A model generated the notes under the pieces. That model made no database searches. It was given only the letters and a program-made list of their open reading frames with translations, and was not told where the DNA came from. A DNA stretch of 64,000 nt. Source: an uncultured SAR86 cluster bacterium. Its GTDB lineage: Bacteria; Pseudomonadota; Gammaproteobacteria; Magnimaribacterales; AG-339-G14. This document shows positions 5,478 through 12,701 of this stretch, one piece after another. Position 1 is the stretch's first letter. Every line of letters begins with the position of its first letter. The DNA lies in assembly GCA_902529935.1 (NCBI GenBank), contig CABZYK010000001.1, positions 92,268 to 156,267 on the forward strand, written 5' to 3'. The translations under genes and the position numbers were made by a program.

Positions 5478-6913
5478 ATGACAAATGGGAAAGTGTCATT
5501 GGACTGGAAATTCATGTTCAGTTGAATTCAGAATCTAAAATCTTTTCTAATGCTCCAACTAAATTTGGATCTGATCAGAATCTGCAAGCATGCGAAGTTG
5601 ATCTTGGAATGCCAGGCACTCTTCCAGTTTTAAATGAAAAAGCCATTGAAAAGGCTATAAAGTTTGGAGTTGCTATTAATGCAGAGATTGCTGAGAAAGT
5701 TGGCTTTGCTAGAAAAAACTATTTTTATCCTGATTTACCAAAAGGTTATCAAATAAGTCAACTTGATGATCCAATAGTTGGCAAAGGATCAATTGAAATT
5801 CAACTAGGAGATCAGGAGATCAAAACAATTGGAATCACAAGAGCTCATCTCGAAGAAGATGCTGGCAAGTCGATACATGATCTATTTGAAAATGAGACTG
5901 CGATTGATCTTAATAGAGCTGGCACACCTTTATTAGAAATTGTCTCTGAGCCGGATATGTCGAATTCTGAAGAAGCGGTTGCTTACTTAAAAAAAATTCA
6001 TTCTATAGTTTGTGCTTTGGAAATTTCTGATGGGAATATGTCTCAGGGTTCAATGAGATGCGATGCAAATGTCTCTGTAAGAAAGAAAGGCGATAAAAAA
6101 TTAGGCACAAGAACGGAACTTAAAAATATAAATTCTTTCAAATTTGTCGAAAAAGCAATTAATTTTGAAATAAAACGCCAAATTTCTTGTCTGGAAAAAG
6201 GAGAAGAGATTGTTCAAGAGACTAGGCTGTATGATGCTATAAATAATACTACTAGATCAATGAGATCAAAAGAGGAAGCTAACGACTATAGATATTTTCC
6301 TGAACCAGACATAATCCCTATTCAAATTACATCTGATCAAATCCAGAGGATCAAAAATGAATTGCCTGAACTGCCTGATGAAAAAAAAGAAAGGTTTATA
6401 AATGAATTAGGTCTATCAGAATATGATGCAAGGAATCTTACATATGATCTAGAACTTGCATATTTCTTTGAAAAAACCTTGGTTAATATTGATGATCCTA
6501 AGCTTGTGGCAAATTGGATATTAGGAGACTTTTCAGCCATATTAAATAAATTTGACGCAGAAGCTAACAACTCAAAAGTTGATGCGATCAAATTCGCCGA
6601 ACTACTGACTTATCTCAAAGAAGAAAAAATCTCTGGGCAAGCTACGAAAAAGGTTCTGGAAAATATATGGGAAAATCCAGATTTATCTGTTTCCAAAAGC
6701 ATTCAAGACCTTGGTTTAGAGCAAATATCAGACGACAATGAGATTGAAGAGATAATAGAAAAGGTTATAAATAATAACCCTGATCAAAAAGAACAGTTTC
6801 TTTCTGGGAAAGATCGTTTATTTGGATTTTTTGTAGGCCAGGTAATGAAGGAATCCAAAGGCAAGGCCAATCCTAAGCTGGTAAATGAGATTCTAAAAAA
6901 GAAATTAGTCTAA
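5474..6913 (+). CDS. gatB: Asp/Glu-tRNA amidotransferase subunit B
   Basis: 'IGLEIHVQL', 'RKNYFYPDLPKGYQISQ', 'DYRYFPEPD'. Confidence 0.98.
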   Translation: MNDKWESVIGLEIHVQLNSESKIFSNAPTKFGSDQNLQACEVDLGMPGTLPVLNEKAIEKAIKFGVAINAEIAEKVGFARKNYFYPDLPKGYQISQLDDPIVGKGSIEIQLGDQEIKTIGITRAHLEEDAGKSIHDLFENETAIDLNRAGTPLLEIVSEPDMSNSEEAVAYLKKIHSIVCALEISDGNMSQGSMRCDANVSVRKKGDKKLGTRTELKNINSFKFVEKAINFEIKRQISCLEKGEEIVQETRLYDAINNTTRSMRSKEEANDYRYFPEPDIIPIQITSDQIQRIKNELPELPDEKKERFINELGLSEYDARNLTYDLELAYFFEKTLVNIDDPKLVANWILGDFSAILNKFDAEANNSKVDAIKFAELLTYLKEEKISGQATKKVLENIWENPDLSVSKSIQDLGLEQISDDNEIEEIIEKVINNNPDQKEQFLSGKDRLFGFFVGQVMKESKGKANPKLVNEILKKKLV

Positions 6914-7362
6914 GTTACATACATAGTGAGAGCTTCAGCTACATATGCTGGTTTTTCTTGCCCTTCAATTTCCATTTTTATTTCATTTTTAACTAGATAC
7001 CTTCCATCCCCTTTATCATCTACAGATAATAAAGTGGCTTTAGTTCGAACCTTTGAACCAACATTTACAGGAGTTAGAAATCTAACCTTATCTAAACCAT
7101 AATTAAAGGCCATTTTCATGTTCTCTGGAGCTACTTGAGGAGCAGGCATTCCAGCCATCAATGATAATGAGAGAAATCCATGAGCAATGGTGGAACCGAA
7201 TAATGGTGTTGCCTTTTCTTCATCGACATGAATGAATTGATGATCTAACGTTACATCAGCAAATTGATTTATTCTTTCTTGATCAATTTCCAACCAATCT
7301 GATGTACCCATATCTTTTCCTATGTAATCTTTTAAAGTATCTGCTGGTACTAATCCCGCCAT
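6910..7362 (-). CDS. MaoC/NodN-family hotdog dehydratase
   Basis: 'FADVTLDHQFIHVD', 'TIAHGFLSLSL', 'NYGLDKVRF'. Confidence 0.9.
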   Translation of the reverse strand: MAGLVPADTLKDYIGKDMGTSDWLEIDQERINQFADVTLDHQFIHVDEEKATPLFGSTIAHGFLSLSLMAGMPAPQVAPENMKMAFNYGLDKVRFLTPVNVGSKVRTKATLLSVDDKGDGRYLVKNEIKMEIEGQEKPAYVAEALTMYVT

Positions 7363-7363
7363 T

Positions 7364-8989
7364 TCAATCTCCTTTTGTAATTAAATGATTTTTATAATCT
7401 TCTCTTAAACCTGTTTTTAATAGTTTTCCAGTTGCTCCGTGAGGTAACTCATCAATGAAGATCACATCATCAGGCAACCACCACTTTGCAACTTTATCAG
7501 AAAGATACTCTAAAACAGATTCTTTTGTACATTCGTCAGAATTTTTAACGACAAATAGTAGAGGTCTCTCATCCCATTTTTCATGAGCAACTCCAACGAC
7601 ACATGCTTCCAAAACTCCAGGGCATCCGAGGGCGGTATTTTCTAGATCAATAGAACTTATCCACTCACCTCCAGACTTGATTACATCCTTACTCCTATCT
7701 ACTATCCTCATGTATCCATCTGGTGAAATAGTTGATACATCTCCAGTATCAAACCAACCATTTTCTAAAGCACTTTCTGATGACTTGTAATATCTTTCAA
7801 TTATTGCTGGTCCTTTAACCATTAACCTGCCAAAAGTTTTCCCATCGTTAGGCAAAGTATCTCCTTCATCATTAACAATTTTAATTTGGCATCCATATAT
7901 TGCTCTTCCTTGACTGGTTTGAAGCTCATAACGATCATCTAACTCCATCAAATCCATCTCTGCTGTATCTTGATTTAATGTTCCTAAAGGACTCATTTCA
8001 GTCATTCCCCACCCATGCAAAAGAAAAACGTTATGTTTTTCTTGGAAGTCTTTTATCATCGACTTAGGAGCGGCAGATCCACCTACTAATACTGAATTAA
8101 CATTTTTTAGGGTAATGTCCTTTTCATCTAAATAATTTAGTAACCCGAGCCACACTGTGGGAACACCAAGCAAATTATTCACTCCCTCATCGTTAATCAA
8201 GTTGTAAATAGACTCTCCATCAGTAAAAGGACCAGGAAATACTAATTTACACCCAAGCATACTAGCTGCATAAGGAACTCCCCAAGCATTAACGTGAAAC
8301 ATTGGAACCACTGGGAGGACAACACTTTTTGAAGTTAAATTCATTGCATTTCCTGCACTCGAGTACCAAGCATGAAGTATTGTAGATCTATGAGAATAGA
8401 GAACTCCTTTTGGATTTCCAGTTGTGCCAGACGTGTAACACAAAGAAGATGCTGTGTTTTCATCAAAAGTTGGCCAATCAAATGCTTCGCTCTCATCTTT
8501 AATTAGCTCTTCATAACACATCAAATTTTCTAGCTTTGAATCTTTGGGAAGGTTTTCTATGTCGCATAAAACAATGAAGCCTTTCACGTTTGTTAAATTT
8601 TTAGCAACTGCCTCAATTATTGGTATAAAAGGAAGATCAATAAAAAGATACTTATCTTCAGCATGATTAACTATGAAATCTATCTGCTCTGGAAAAAGCC
8701 TAGGGTTTAGAGTATGCAATACTGCTCCAATCCCAGAGATTCCAAAATAAAGTTCAAAATGTCGGTAGCCATTGACAGCCATTGTGCCGAGAACATCGCC
8801 TTCTTTAACTCCTAAGTTAACTAAGGCATTGGCAAGCTGCTTTGATCTTTTTGCAGCATCTAAAATAGAATATCTATGAATGTCTCCTTCAACTCTCTTG
8901 CTTACTATTTCAGTTTTAGAATTATTTTGAATTGCATGCTCAAGAATTCCTGAAATGAGCAAAGGTTCAGTCATCATATTACCCAGCAT
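7364..8989 (-). CDS. Acyl-CoA ligase (fatty-acid/3-methylmercaptopropionate CoA ligase, DmdB-like)
   Basis: AMP-binding '[11 protein letters not shown]', 'WGMTE', '[16 protein letters not shown]'; N-terminus '[19 protein letters not shown]'. Confidence 0.88.
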
Positions 8990-9011
8990 AATTACCTCTT
9001 TATGATTAATA

Positions 9012-10064
9012 TTAATTAAAAGTCTGACTAACTAATGGAGAATATCTTCGATGCAAGTAAGTTTCAATAGTCTGCTTAGATTTAAAATTTTTTATTAGCT
9101 CTATATCGTTTAAGGCTTGAACTAAATAAGGTTTCCATTCCAAAAACAAATTATCATCTGTAGTCTCAAAAACTGCTTTCTTAATATCTTTAAAATTTCT
9201 AATCATTTTATTGATTTCAGATTTCTTGATATTTTTGAATGGACTATCAAACAAAGGCAGCAGTTCACTGGGTAAATTTATCTTTTTTTTCTTATCAAAA
9301 ACTTTACCTGTTAAAAATTCATCAGTTTCTATAAGGCCGGTGCCATTAATAACGTGTCCATAAGGATTACCTCTAAAAAAATCCCTGCCCGTAATATCGC
9401 CTAAAAAAAGCCTTGTAGGACAATAATCGTTTGCATAAAAATTATCCCAAATAACCACAGGATTCTTTATTACTTGACCTAGCTCTTTGAGGTGGTCTTG
9501 AGAAATAAAATCGCTAATTACTTTTGGACCCGTCCAAAGAAAAAATAAATCATTATTTATAGTTTCAGATACTCCTTCGAGATACTTATCATTTTGAATT
9601 CCTTTTTTAGAAAAGCTTTCGCAATAAATTGATGGACAAAACCATCCGTTACTGAGACCCAACTTAACAGTTACCTCTGAAATTAATTCGCCGTGAAATT
9701 TACCTAAATCCTTATCATCAGATTCTATTCCAATGTTATTTATATCAATATCATCAAACAATAAACCTACTTCGGAAAATCCTTTATCAATGGCAAAATT
9801 AAACTTTGAAAGCAGAAAGTTAAAATCCTTCTTAGATTTTCTATTAAAGTCTGCTCCTGGAGATAATGTATATACTTGAGCTATATTTTTGGGAATGCTT
9901 CGTGCTTCAAGAGATTTATCTTTTGAACGCCATTTTTGTCTGATGTGAGAATCTTCTTTTGGCGCATAAATGTAATGGGTAATGTTACTATTCTCAAAAC
10001 CATAATCGTTCTTTTTTGGCTTTCTATTATAAAAACCTTCTATGAATCCTCTGATTTTCATCAT
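9012..10064 (-). CDS. Glycoside hydrolase family 84 (O-GlcNAcase/beta-N-acetylglucosaminidase), no signal peptide
   Basis: 'GFIEGFY', 'YIYAPKED', 'LLFDDI', 'WTGPKVIS', 'IWDNFYANDY..RLFLG'; ATG overlaps moeB stop (TAATG). Confidence 0.85.
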   Translation of the reverse strand: MMKIRGFIEGFYNRKPKKNDYGFENSNITHYIYAPKEDSHIRQKWRSKDKSLEARSIPKNIAQVYTLSPGADFNRKSKKDFNFLLSKFNFAIDKGFSEVGLLFDDIDINNIGIESDDKDLGKFHGELISEVTVKLGLSNGWFCPSIYCESFSKKGIQNDKYLEGVSETINNDLFFLWTGPKVISDFISQDHLKELGQVIKNPVVIWDNFYANDYCPTRLFLGDITGRDFFRGNPYGHVINGTGLIETDEFLTGKVFDKKKKINLPSELLPLFDSPFKNIKKSEINKMIRNFKDIKKAVFETTDDNLFLEWKPYLVQALNDIELIKNFKSKQTIETYLHRRYSPLVSQTFN

Positions 10065-10834
10065 TAACACTTACCACAAATTTTACATTGGTTATTTTTT
10101 TTAAAAGATATTTCCCTGCTTAAATTATCTTTGAAATCAAAATCTTGGAAAATTTGGCAGTTCTTGGATATCTTAGTAATTGTTTTTATTGATTCTGAAG
10201 CTAACATTGACCCAATTATCCCTACTATTGGAGAAAATATTGCTGATTCTGTGCAGCTTAAGTCTTCCGAAGATGTATCTTCGAATAAGCATTCATAACA
10301 TGCACTATCATTTTGGAAATCAAATTTCATAAGCTGCCCTTTCCAATGAATGCATGAACCTGAAATTAAGGGTATTTTATTTTTATAACAAAAATTATTT
10401 GTATACCTTCTAGTTTCAAAATTATCAGAACAATCTATAACAATTTCGCTCTTTGTTATTTCATCAGGAACACTATTTTTTTCAAAACTTTGTCTGAATT
10501 TTTTTATATTCACATCAGGATTAAGTCTCAGTAAAGATGTAACTGCAGCATCGACTTTAAAAGCATTTAAGTCCTCTTCACGAAATAAAATTTGCCTTTG
10601 TAAGTTACTTAGATCAACTTGGTCAGGATCAAAGAGGTTTAAGTTACCAATTCCACTTGCAACCAGATACTGCGAGCAGGCGCATCCCAAACCACCAACC
10701 CCAATAATCGTGACAGTAGAATTTTTTAGTAGCTTTTGTCCCTCAACCCCTATGTCAGTAAGCATGATATTTCTGCTGTATTTCATCAGCTCTTTTTCAC
10801 TAAAGTTCACTTGGTTAGACACGCTACTCTCCAT
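10064..10834 (-). CDS. moeB: ThiF/MoeB-family adenylyltransferase
   Basis: 'YSRNIML..IGVEGQ', 'GVGGLG', 'SNLQRQ', two CxxC zinc motifs; follows prmC. Confidence 0.85.
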   Translation of the reverse strand: MESSVSNQVNFSEKELMKYSRNIMLTDIGVEGQKLLKNSTVTIIGVGGLGCACSQYLVASGIGNLNLFDPDQVDLSNLQRQILFREEDLNAFKVDAAVTSLLRLNPDVNIKKFRQSFEKNSVPDEITKSEIVIDCSDNFETRRYTNNFCYKNKIPLISGSCIHWKGQLMKFDFQNDSACYECLFEDTSSEDLSCTESAIFSPIVGIIGSMLASESIKTITKISKNCQIFQDFDFKDNLSREISFKKNNQCKICGKC

Positions 10835-11613
10835 TTTCCATTCAAATCTTTTAAAAAAGAAACATCACTGTAGTCATTTTGTTTTGCCATTTTATTTATA
10901 GGATCCTTCTGATCAAATCCATGTTCTAAAAGCAATTTCCCATTTTCTTTTAAGAAAGTAACACTATTTTTTACGATTGTACTAATGTCAGCCAGTCCCT
11001 TTTTCTCAGAAAAAAGTGCTGATGGTGGCTCAAACCAAATTCCATCTTCATCACCATCTAAATCATTACGATAAATATATGGTGGATTAGAAATTATCAA
11101 ATCCATTGGTTCAAAAAGCCATCTTTTATGCCAATCATGCTGAATCAGAACAGAGTTTTTTAGATTTAGAGCTTTTATGTTTTCTCTCGCAACAGATAAA
11201 GCTTCAAAACTTTTATCTGTTAAGGTGCAAGTCCAAAAAGGCTTTTCTTTAGCTATAGACATACCTATAGCTCCAGATCCTGTTCCAAGCTCAAGAAGTG
11301 AACAATTCTCTAAATCAAAAGAGATGGCTGTTTCTACTAATAATTCTGACTCTGGTCTGGGGATTAACGTACTTTCATTAACCTGAAATTCATCATCCCA
11401 GAAAGGTTTTATGCCTGTTATATATGCCAAAGGAAAACCTTCTTCTCTCTTCTTTACAAGGTCGGTAAAGGCTTTGTTTGTTGTATCTTGAATTTCAATA
11501 TCAGACTTTTTATAAAGATCAACTCTTTCAATTTTGAGGATGTGACACAAAATCAGTTCCTTATCTATTGTTGGCAGGTTAGAAATTGAAAATAACTTTC
11601 GAAGATTTGTCAC
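10807..11613 (-). CDS. prmC: Release factor glutamine methyltransferase
   Basis: 'LIPRPESE', 'ELGTGSGAI', 'SNPPY'; GTG start. Confidence 0.95.
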
Positions 11614-12701
11614 GAGAATGTTTTTTCAAGGTTTGATAATAATCTAGCTTGATTTTCTTCCAATAAGGTTGAGATCATGATTTCCATTTCACCATCTAGG
11701 AAACCATCCAAATTATGAACCGAAAATTCAATTCTATGATCAGTGATTCTACTTTGAGGAAAATTATATGTTCTAATTTTTTCAGATCGATCTCCTGACC
11801 CAACCATATTTTTTCTTTTTTCAGCTTGCTCTTGAGTTAGTTCTTGTTCTGCCATTGCTTTGAGCTTTGCACCAAGCAAAGTAAGTGCTTTTGCTTTATT
11901 CTTATGTTGAGACCTATCATCCTGGCACTCAACGACTATTCCGGTCGGAATGTGGGTTAACCTCACAGCTGAATCTGTCTTATTAACATGCTGTCCTCCT
12001 GCACCAGAGGCACGAAAAGTGTCGGTTCTGATTTCAGACTTATCTATCTCGACTTCTTCAACATCTTCTATTTCTGCAAGAACAGCTACCGAGCATGCCG
12101 AGGTATGAATTCTTCCTTGTGATTCAGTTGAAGGAACTCTTTGAACACGATGTATCCCAGATTCAAACTTCAATTTTTTATAAACATTCTCACCAGAAAT
12201 TTTTATTACAACTTCTTTAAATCCACCTTGCTCGCTTTCTCTTGACGAAATAAGGTCGCTCTTCCATCTATTTCTTTCTGCTAGCCTTAGATACATTCTA
12301 TAAAGGTCTCCAACAAAAAGTGCTGCCTCATCGCCACCGGTTCCGGCCCTAACTTCAACAAAAACATTTTTATCATCATTCTCATCAACAGGTATAAGAA
12401 GATTCTTCAGCTCTATTTCAATCTCAGAAATTCTTTCGTTATTTTCTTTAATTTCCTCTTTTGCTAACTCCGCTAAATCTATATCAGATTCATTAAGGAC
12501 TTCTTCAGCACTAGAAATATTGCTTTCGCACTGAATGTACTCTTCGAATTTTTCTACAATAGGTTTTAAATTAGAATATTCTTTCGACAAAGATGCATAC
12601 TGCTTTTGATCATTTATTACATCTGGCATGCTCAATTTAGTCTGAATATCAGAGAAATTATCCTTAATCTCAGTTAATCTTGTTTTTATTGAATCTAACA
12701 T
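11610..12701 (-). CDS. prfA: Peptide chain release factor 1
   Basis: PxT motif 'VPSTE', 'GAGGQHVN'. Confidence 0.98.

Follow-up and report, generated by a model that had tools for sequence, protein, structure and literature searches.

A leaderless family 84 glycoside hydrolase of a SAR86 bacterium as a probable replacement of NagZ in peptidoglycan recycling

The stretch of DNA analysed here (the window; 64,000 nucleotides of contig CABZYK010000001.1, assembly GCA_902529935.1, from an uncultured SAR86 cluster bacterium of the order Magnimaribacterales) contains a gene for a beta-N-acetylglucosaminidase of glycoside hydrolase family 84 (GH84). The enzyme is probably a non-orthologous replacement of NagZ (family GH3), namely a cytoplasmic hydrolase that removes N-acetylglucosamine (GlcNAc) from GlcNAc-anhydro-N-acetylmuramic acid (GlcNAc-anhMurNAc), with or without attached peptide, in peptidoglycan recycling. 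We favour this reading because the protein is a GH84 with an intact site and a cytoplasmic form, the partners of the pathway are present, GH84 and NagZ exclude each other strictly among the genomes of the order, and related GH84 genes of two other lineages are clustered with recycling genes. The GH84 family and the recycling pathway are both well known; a full-text literature search found no paper assigning a GH84 to the NagZ step, and, as far as could be seen, their pairing is apparently not in print.

The gene encodes an intact, leaderless (cytoplasmic) GH84 with an intact active site. Its product of 350 amino acids (aa), or 352 aa when an in-frame GTG at 10070 is taken as the start (open reading frame (ORF) 9012..10070(-)), matched the Pfam NAGidase profile PF07555 with residues 7-230, covering the first 230 of 295 profile positions (E = 4.8e-36; 125 bits, cut-off 25), and a genome-wide profile search gave the same NAGidase result for gene 9012-10064. 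GH84 was the only Pfam domain in the 350-aa protein, the sole NCBIfam match was NF041654 (GH84-type GlcNAcase), and GH3 models as well as the NagZ model NF003740 gave no match. In a phmmer search of PDB chains, human O-GlcNAcase (hOGA; 5uhk, 1.9e-30) ranked first, followed by OgOGA of Oceanicola granulosus (2xsa, 1.3e-25), TtOGA of Thermobaculum terrenum (5diy, 2.2e-20), BtGH84 (3e-20) and CpNagJ (7e-18). The motifs LLFDDID, LWTGPKVIS and VIWDNFYANDY matched LLFDDID, LWTGPKVVS and VIWDNIHANDY of hOGA residue for residue in the phmmer alignments, and an FCPxxYC motif was aligned in the same way in the PDB-chain matches. Positions shared with hOGA (numbered there from chain offsets) further include G67, Y69, K98, Y219, T250, V254, W278, N280, D285 and Y286, which we take to be functional residues of the human enzyme. 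Substrate-assisted catalysis is expected in the window GH84 as well. The catalytic pair of hOGA, D174/D175 in the published numbering (PMC4683255), is aligned with the Asp-Asp pair of the window protein (Table 1).

In an alignment of 41 homologous GH84 sequences, D104 and D105 were nearly invariant, and Y31, P35, K36, R42, W45, P144, Y147, Y161, G179, W206, D207, N208, N212, D213 and N240 were invariant. The conserved GlcNAc-binding set, that is, the K of YAPKxD, the Y of CPxxYC, WDN, NDY and a late Asn, is thus complete, with the residues aligned to hOGA up to residue 228 and N240 equated with the late Asn of hOGA from the 41 sequences only. An 8-residue deletion after K..WR (around residue 47) was found in the GH84 of the window's genus, in which every invariant pocket residue is kept. 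The motifs ANDYCP, N[GP]TG..TD and the C-terminal W.WK.PL..EW.P.L of the window's clade differ from hOGA. The AlphaFold2 model (pLDDT 87.1, predicted TM score 0.86) showed a (beta/alpha)8 barrel followed by a C-terminal helical bundle. All of the top Foldseek matches were OgOGA, hOGA, TtOGA and Trichoplax OGA, the best being OgOGA 7khs (E = 1.3e-20, query TM score (TMq) 0.72-0.73) and hOGA 9ba8_B (TMq 0.77). The first barrel strand begins at residue 4 of the model, and no hydrophobic N-terminal segment was recognized (the top Kyte-Doolittle mean in the first 40 residues was -0.5 with a 15-residue window). The initial annotation, made from the sequence alone, had described GH84 catalytic motifs including the DD pair, a resemblance to metazoan OGA, and a lack of signal peptide and carbohydrate-binding modules; the profile match it proposed to look for was obtained, human OGA ranked above the secreted gut and pathogen GH84s, and the other two points were borne out by the hOGA alignment and by the domain content and N-terminus described above.

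Of the solved structures, OgOGA (2xsa, 2xsb, 7khs) is the best match to the model and resembles the window protein in being a leaderless bacterial GH84 composed of the TIM barrel and helical bundle alone. However, it is about 100 residues longer (447 versus 350 aa), and the structural alignment shows only about 22% identity. OgOGA is used as a surrogate of human OGA and was reported to be active on O-GlcNAc proteins (PMC2973230). Human OGA (5uhk, 5m7r) ranks first by sequence and has the same DD pair, but its 916 aa include a long disordered insert and a pseudo-acetyltransferase domain. Homologues of the window GH84 were met in databases under names such as 'hyaluronoglucosaminidase' and 'protein O-GlcNAcase/histone acetyltransferase'.

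The distribution of GH84 within the order is complementary to that of NagZ. The match lists of the GH84 model PF07555 and the NagZ model NF003740 were read against each other for 265 genomes of the order: GH84 was found in 136 and NagZ in 98 (95 above the cut-off, two fragments, and one 601-aa ORF that is probably not NagZ), while 31 genomes had neither and none had both, so that NagZ was found in 0 of the 136 GH84-bearing genomes. Of the 57 genomes with a completeness of 90% or more, 36 have GH84, 20 have NagZ, and 56 have exactly one of the two. In one family (f1), NagZ was recognized in 8 of 9 genomes of genus g4, and GH84 in 13 of 14, 6 of 8 and 17 of 17 genomes of g1, g2 and g3, respectively; even single genera are divided, namely g17 (20 genomes with NagZ, four with GH84) and g11 (18 with NagZ, four with GH84). 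This pattern needs several independent switches between the two enzymes, although the genomes are kin and no statistical claim is made for it. Among 60 relatives inspected, GH84 was present in 46 and missing from three genera, and in these three genera short GH3 ORFs (337-358 aa) were found in all 12 sampled genomes; one of these ORFs reached 431 bits with the NCBIfam NagZ model (cut-off 207). Only one GH3 ORF below about 560 aa was seen in the other genomes, and it is truncated by a contig end (G049, 380 aa). The initial annotation had held that sporadic presence in relatives would speak against its proposal. Presence in 136 of 265 genomes is formally sporadic, but the gaps are filled exactly by NagZ, and thus point to function rather than to dispensability. 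Two copies of GH84 were seen on different contigs of one genome of genus g7 (G246); its contamination is 4%, and this may be a binning artefact rather than a duplication.

The GH84 gene of the window lies behind prfA, prmC and moeB and in front of an acyl-CoA ligase gene. In the five NagZ-type genomes inspected, this slot contains prfA-prmC-moeB, about 100 bp, and the ligase in one (G017), prfA-prmC-ligase in two (G126 and G086), and other genes after prmC in the remaining two, whereas nagZ is located at unrelated loci. GH84 is therefore cleanly absent from the slot where NagZ exists. An in-place swap of nagZ for GH84 at the moeB slot was considered and rejected, since the slot is empty and nagZ is elsewhere.

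The remaining enzymes of peptidoglycan recycling seem to be present. The search for AnmK, AmpD and AmpG covered three GH84-type and two NagZ-type genomes of the order, and each of the three proteins was found in all five. In the genome of the window, AmpD (270 bits; cut-off 143) is encoded beside AmpG (386 bits; cut-off 350) on contig C25, AnmK (273 bits, Pfam) on contig C6, and an overlapping gene pair with AmgK and MurU as best NCBIfam matches on contig C2. A gene for a YajQ-family cyclic-di-GMP-binding protein was noticed between ampD and ampG (G000:C25:1314-1796, locus L122). GH20 and NagA (TIGR00221) were found in none of the five genomes, four of which are 95-97% complete in the case of NagA, and MurQ (TIGR00274) was above the cut-off in none, with only weak matches of 189-aa and 611-623-aa ORFs. 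An Escherichia coli-type catabolic branch was dropped in favour of the AmgK/MurU branch, with MurQ and NagA each at 0 of 5. In the genome of the window itself, NagZ, GH20, MurQ and NagA were not found (its only GH3 match is an 810-aa ORF elsewhere), and, since the partners are present and neither NagZ nor GH20 was found, the NagZ-type step is the only gap in its recycling pathway. Judged from these gene contents, the organism appears to have the anabolic, Pseudomonas-type route of recycling minus the removal of GlcNAc from the imported disaccharide. In a study of Caulobacter, this step was called 'critical' (PMC13046382).

Relatives of the GH84 in other lineages point in the same direction. 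When one genome per species was scanned, 163 relatives of the window GH84 were obtained, and the best 80 beyond the window's group, mainly from Fibrobacterota, SAR116 and Granulosicoccaceae, were used. NagZ was above the cut-off in 1 of 40 such GH84 genomes, and among 121 sampled genomes from the SAR116 order, GH84 was found in 89 and NagZ in none. Each of the five SAR116 genomes with long contigs has anmK directly next to GH84, in the same orientation, and ampG at a distance of 1-5 kb; one contiguous run is Amidase_2, NlpC/P60-SH3, AmpG, AnmK, GH84 and M19 dipeptidase, and another is AmpG, YkuD, a MurQ-like gene, AnmK, PIG-L deacetylase and GH84. A tblastn search for recycling partners within 3 kb of the 80 loci gave AnmK in 9 of 10 SAR116 loci, and among the 12 Granulosicoccaceae loci AmpG was adjacent in 11, Amidase_2 in 10 and NlpC/P60 in eight, with the order GH84-anmK-murQ in two (confirmed by Pfam; GH84 and anmK overlap by 4 bases). 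Such clustering was seen in SAR116 and Granulosicoccaceae clade-mates; in the order of the window, GH84 is in the prfA-prmC slot instead. A quick maximum-likelihood tree (109 sequences) united the window's order, SAR116 plus Granulosicoccaceae, and Fibrobacterota in one clade of 100 rows (SH-aLRT 99), outside which were a eukaryotic OGA, a protein of Chloroflexi, and proteins of Verrucomicrobia, Acidobacteriota and Pirellulales; the tree does not settle the branching order among the three groups.

Several other features of these clusters were noticed. A PIG-L family (GlcNAc-type) deacetylase gene is located between anmK and GH84 in SAR116 (10 of 10 loci; e.g., L120:6315-7004), and genes for M19 dipeptidase and NlpC/P60-SH3 peptidase recur there, which, as far as gene content can tell, suggests a variant route for the released GlcNAc and the stem peptide. 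One GH84-bearing genome of Granulosicoccaceae contains a NagZ-like frame with an in-frame TGA (G278:C53:9359-10264; 148 bits, below the cut-off of 207) that may be a decaying nagZ. In one Granulosicoccus locus, a glutamate-racemase-like gene (Asp_Glu_race; L087:187-1017) precedes Amidase_2-AmpG-GH84. In some other gammaproteobacteria, murI follows hemA-prfA-prmC-moeB, and by analogy a wall-related gene at the end of this string may be an old habit.

The alternation with NagZ could in principle be a phylogenetic coincidence, with GH84 fulfilling some other housekeeping function linked to the hemA-prfA-prmC-moeB string. Four families of the order have indeed kept the slot behind prfA-prmC(-moeB), the kinship of the genomes inflates co-occurrence statistics, and the neighbours of the Fibrobacterota clade-mates are uninformative (SDR, UbiD and HisRS in two loci analysed with Pfam). 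However, a coincidence would have to account for the switches inside g11, g17 and family f1, for the presence of exactly one of the two genes in all but one of the high-quality genomes, and for two unrelated lineages with GH84 among recycling genes and without NagZ, and we regard it as very unlikely.

A general cytoplasmic exo-GlcNAcase for nutrition, trimming imported chito-oligosaccharides, GlcNAc-glycosides or glycopeptides whose GlcNAc is burnt or used as a nitrogen source, is another explanation. NagZ-type enzymes of some bacteria also act on chitobiose, so that complementarity to NagZ alone fails to exclude it. GH84s are promiscuous exo-GlcNAcases, and one of them, BbhIV, was reported to function in glycan breakdown (PMC10245121). 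On the other hand, NagA is needed for the catabolism of GlcNAc-6-phosphate, and its lack from the genomes tested argues against GlcNAc catabolism as the purpose; GH20 was not found in them either, no sugar transporter or kinase exists among the genes packed around GH84 (prfA, prmC, moeB, acyl-CoA ligase and MaoC), and the clade-mates cluster with anmK, ampG, ampD and murQ rather than with chitin genes. A nutritional role therefore seems unlikely.

As a replacement of NagZ, the GH84 would act as follows. Lytic transglycosylases would release GlcNAc-1,6-anhydroMurNAc-peptides from the wall, and AmpG would import them. The cytoplasmic GH84 would then remove the non-reducing GlcNAc by substrate-assisted catalysis, in which D104 would orient the 2-acetamido group and D105 would serve as acid/base. 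AmpD would remove the peptide, AnmK would phosphorylate the freed anhMurNAc, and the AmgK/MurU-like pair would return MurNAc, and probably also the released GlcNAc, to UDP-sugars. What GH84 acts on, whether it precedes AmpD, and what becomes of the released GlcNAc are inferred. The proposed job, the compartment, the size class (about 340 aa, leaderless) and the partners AmpG, AmpD and AnmK are those of NagZ (GH3, NF003740), but the two belong to unrelated fold families, and the window protein is an analogue, not a member; GH3 uses an enzyme nucleophile, whereas GH84 uses neighbouring-group participation. Precedents exist. BbhIV, a GH84, cleaves a GlcNAc-sugar bond (PMC10245121), and the non-GH3 enzyme NagX of Stenotrophomonas maltophilia (GH20) was reported to cut GlcNAc-anhMurNAc, processing GlcNAc-anhMurNAc-peptides alongside or instead of NagZ (PMC13436218). 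NagX, however, is described there as periplasmic and coexists with NagZ, whereas the window enzyme is cytoplasmic, belongs to GH84 and excludes NagZ.

Several points weigh against this proposal. Hydrolysis of GlcNAc-beta1,4-anhMurNAc is not known from any GH84, and the proposal is built on sequence and context. The genome of the window is only 78.7% complete, so that its genus (0 of 14) and the order-wide pattern are the main grounds for regarding NagZ as lacking from it. The relatives compared are not independent, and genus and family codes were the basis for counting the switches. Divergent GH3 GlcNAcases might escape the NagZ model, and long GH3 ORFs (about 810 aa and about 620-650 aa) exist in both types of genome. 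No GH84 of the order diverges more than that of the window's genus (125 bits versus up to 234), whose match is confined to profile positions 1-230; the AmgK-like and MurU-like proteins fall well short of the NCBIfam cut-offs; and the window GH84 adjoins no recycling gene but sits in a translation-factor string. Outside SAR116 and Granulosicoccaceae, no recycling partner was found within 3 kb by tblastn in 56 of 58 loci, including those of the Fibrobacterota clade-mates, and one genome of Acidobacteriota (G297) carries both GH84 and NagZ.

The translation-factor string itself consists of six co-directional genes on the minus strand with overlaps or tiny gaps (window 6910-12701; Table 1). In the sequence TAATG, the ATG of GH84 and the TAA stop of the upstream ThiF/MoeB-family gene have one base in common, and the acyl-CoA ligase starts 22 bases past the GH84 stop. 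This overlap and the prfA-prmC-moeB setting had both been pointed out in the initial annotation, as had the retention of a leaderless, tightly packed gene in a streamlined genome; all three hold, the families being confirmed by NCBIfam and Pfam with MoeB just below its subfamily cut-off. Synteny with prmC-moeB, which it had suggested examining, is conserved as to placement and variable as to moeB. The order prfA-prmC-(moeB)-GH84-ligase was recognized in 15 of 21 GH84 loci of relatives, with moeB between prmC and GH84 in six of the 15, and further GH84 loci from the minority of g11 and g17 are in the same slot, after hemA-prfA-prmC, in 3 of 3 cases. Downstream, the slot is bordered throughout the order by the acyl-CoA ligase as a conserved neighbour, with or without GH84.

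Table 1. Features of the GH84 gene and its co-directional neighbours in the window
Feature	Position	Strand	Basis or remarks
GH84 beta-N-acetylglucosaminidase gene	9012..10064	-	350 aa from ATG at 10064; PF07555, PDB matches, AlphaFold2 model, Foldseek
Codons of catalytic Asp-Asp pair, D104/D105 (350-aa numbering)	9750..9755	-	Alignment to hOGA D174/D175
Motif WDNFYANDY, W206-Y214, sugar-binding residues of the GH84 pocket	9423..9449	-	Aligned to hOGA WDNIHANDY
prfA, peptide chain release factor 1	11610..12701	-	NF001859, 508 bits > cut-off 400
prmC, release-factor glutamine methyltransferase	10807..11613	-	TIGR03534, 250 bits > cut-off 199
ThiF/MoeB-family adenylyltransferase	10064..10834	-	PF00899, 241.7 bits; NF004281 MoeB, 262 bits, just below subfamily cut-off 266
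Acyl-CoA ligase	7364..8989	-	PF00501 and PF13193; best NCBIfam 3-(methylthio)propionyl-CoA ligase, 799 bits < cut-off 822
MaoC-like dehydratase, last in the co-directional string	6910..7362	-	PF01575, 84.5 bits

In some lineages, family f2 among them, GH84 comes immediately after prmC, with no moeB between them (L002-L005, L007-L009, L015 and L020, versus L001, L006, L016, L018, L019 and L021 with moeB). Because moeB is present in some lineages only, the overlap of start and stop codons in the window is not a conserved feature. In genus g2, the six GH84 loci (L010-L014 and L017; e.g., L011:1228-2271) are away from prfA-prmC, flanked by an esterase-like ORF and a cytochrome b561-like ORF, and in the tree these sequences are placed among those of family f3, not of their own family f1; judged from the sequences, this looks like a transfer within the order or a relocation. 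The ligase, DmdB-like by its best match, and the MaoC gene (6910-8989(-)) may belong to dimethylsulfoniopropionate demethylation or fatty-acid handling. RNA-library contigs of three studies cover the GH84 gene, run X1 (9055-10360) spanning the moeB junction and run X5 (8518-9307) the ligase junction. This is a weak hint that GH84 is expressed and co-transcribed with moeB and the ligase, as the contigs are assembled, DNA carry-over is possible and depth is not comparable. The placement behind prfA-prmC(-moeB) is read as housekeeping co-expression, with no functional link to translation termination.

Intracellular cycling of protein O-GlcNAc, as hinted at in the initial annotation, is not supported. 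A glycosyltransferase of family GT41 (PF13844) was not found in the window's own genome (1.15 Mb in 27 contigs, 78.7% complete) nor in any of 60 relatives, including 37 of high quality, while the controls, Caulobacter and Synechococcus, were positive. This removes the only known partner, although an unknown transferase remains conceivable. Human OGA works with the O-GlcNAc transferase (OGT) of this family. TtOGA (5diy) is likewise an intracellular bacterial GH84 made of barrel and helical bundle, but T. terrenum was singled out precisely because it possesses a GT41 OGT as partner (PMC4683255), whereas none was found in the window's lineage. Thus, a bacterial OGT/OGA pair can exist, and for a true protein O-GlcNAcase acting on cytoplasmic proteins, perhaps translation factors, speak also the hOGA chains as the best solved sequence relatives, the cytoplasmic form, and the tight packing of the gene with prfA and prmC, whose products act in or modify translation. 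However, besides the lack of GT41, a strict either/or relation with NagZ has no rationale for such an enzyme, the operon link is loose (moeB is missing in f2 and the gene is elsewhere in g2), and the clade-mates exist inside wall-recycling clusters. We consider this explanation extremely improbable. The second suggestion of the initial annotation, salvage of GlcNAc from imported glycopeptides, comes close to the replacement of NagZ proposed here, provided that the glycopeptides meant are anhydromuropeptides of the cell itself, taken up through AmpG; that annotation had not connected the gene with NagZ or peptidoglycan recycling.

A wider reading is possible, though we think it doubtful: the whole clade of short, leaderless bacterial GH84s (those of the window's order, SAR116, Granulosicoccaceae, many Fibrobacterota, and perhaps OgOGA-like proteins) may represent the cytoplasmic muropeptide GlcNAcase of lineages without NagZ, and, by extension, eukaryotic OGA may have descended from a bacterial wall-recycling enzyme that was later recruited to protein deglycosylation. 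If this were so, the 'orphan' bacterial homologues of OGA would gain a native role, and the finding would bear on the origin of eukaryotic OGA.

For the window enzyme itself, the either/or relation with NagZ and the clustering with anmK, ampG, ampD and murQ lead to a concrete native function that can be tested cheaply. If the replacement of NagZ is true, GH84 would be the third glycoside hydrolase family for cleavage of GlcNAc-anhMurNAc, after GH3 NagZ and GH20 NagX, and database names such as those cited above would have to be corrected. NagZ inhibitors are reported to be in development as antibiotic adjuvants (PMC3920638), and a bypass by GH84 would be relevant to the generality of that strategy. 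Some of the most abundant streamlined bacteria of the ocean would then retain a complete anabolic route of wall recycling.

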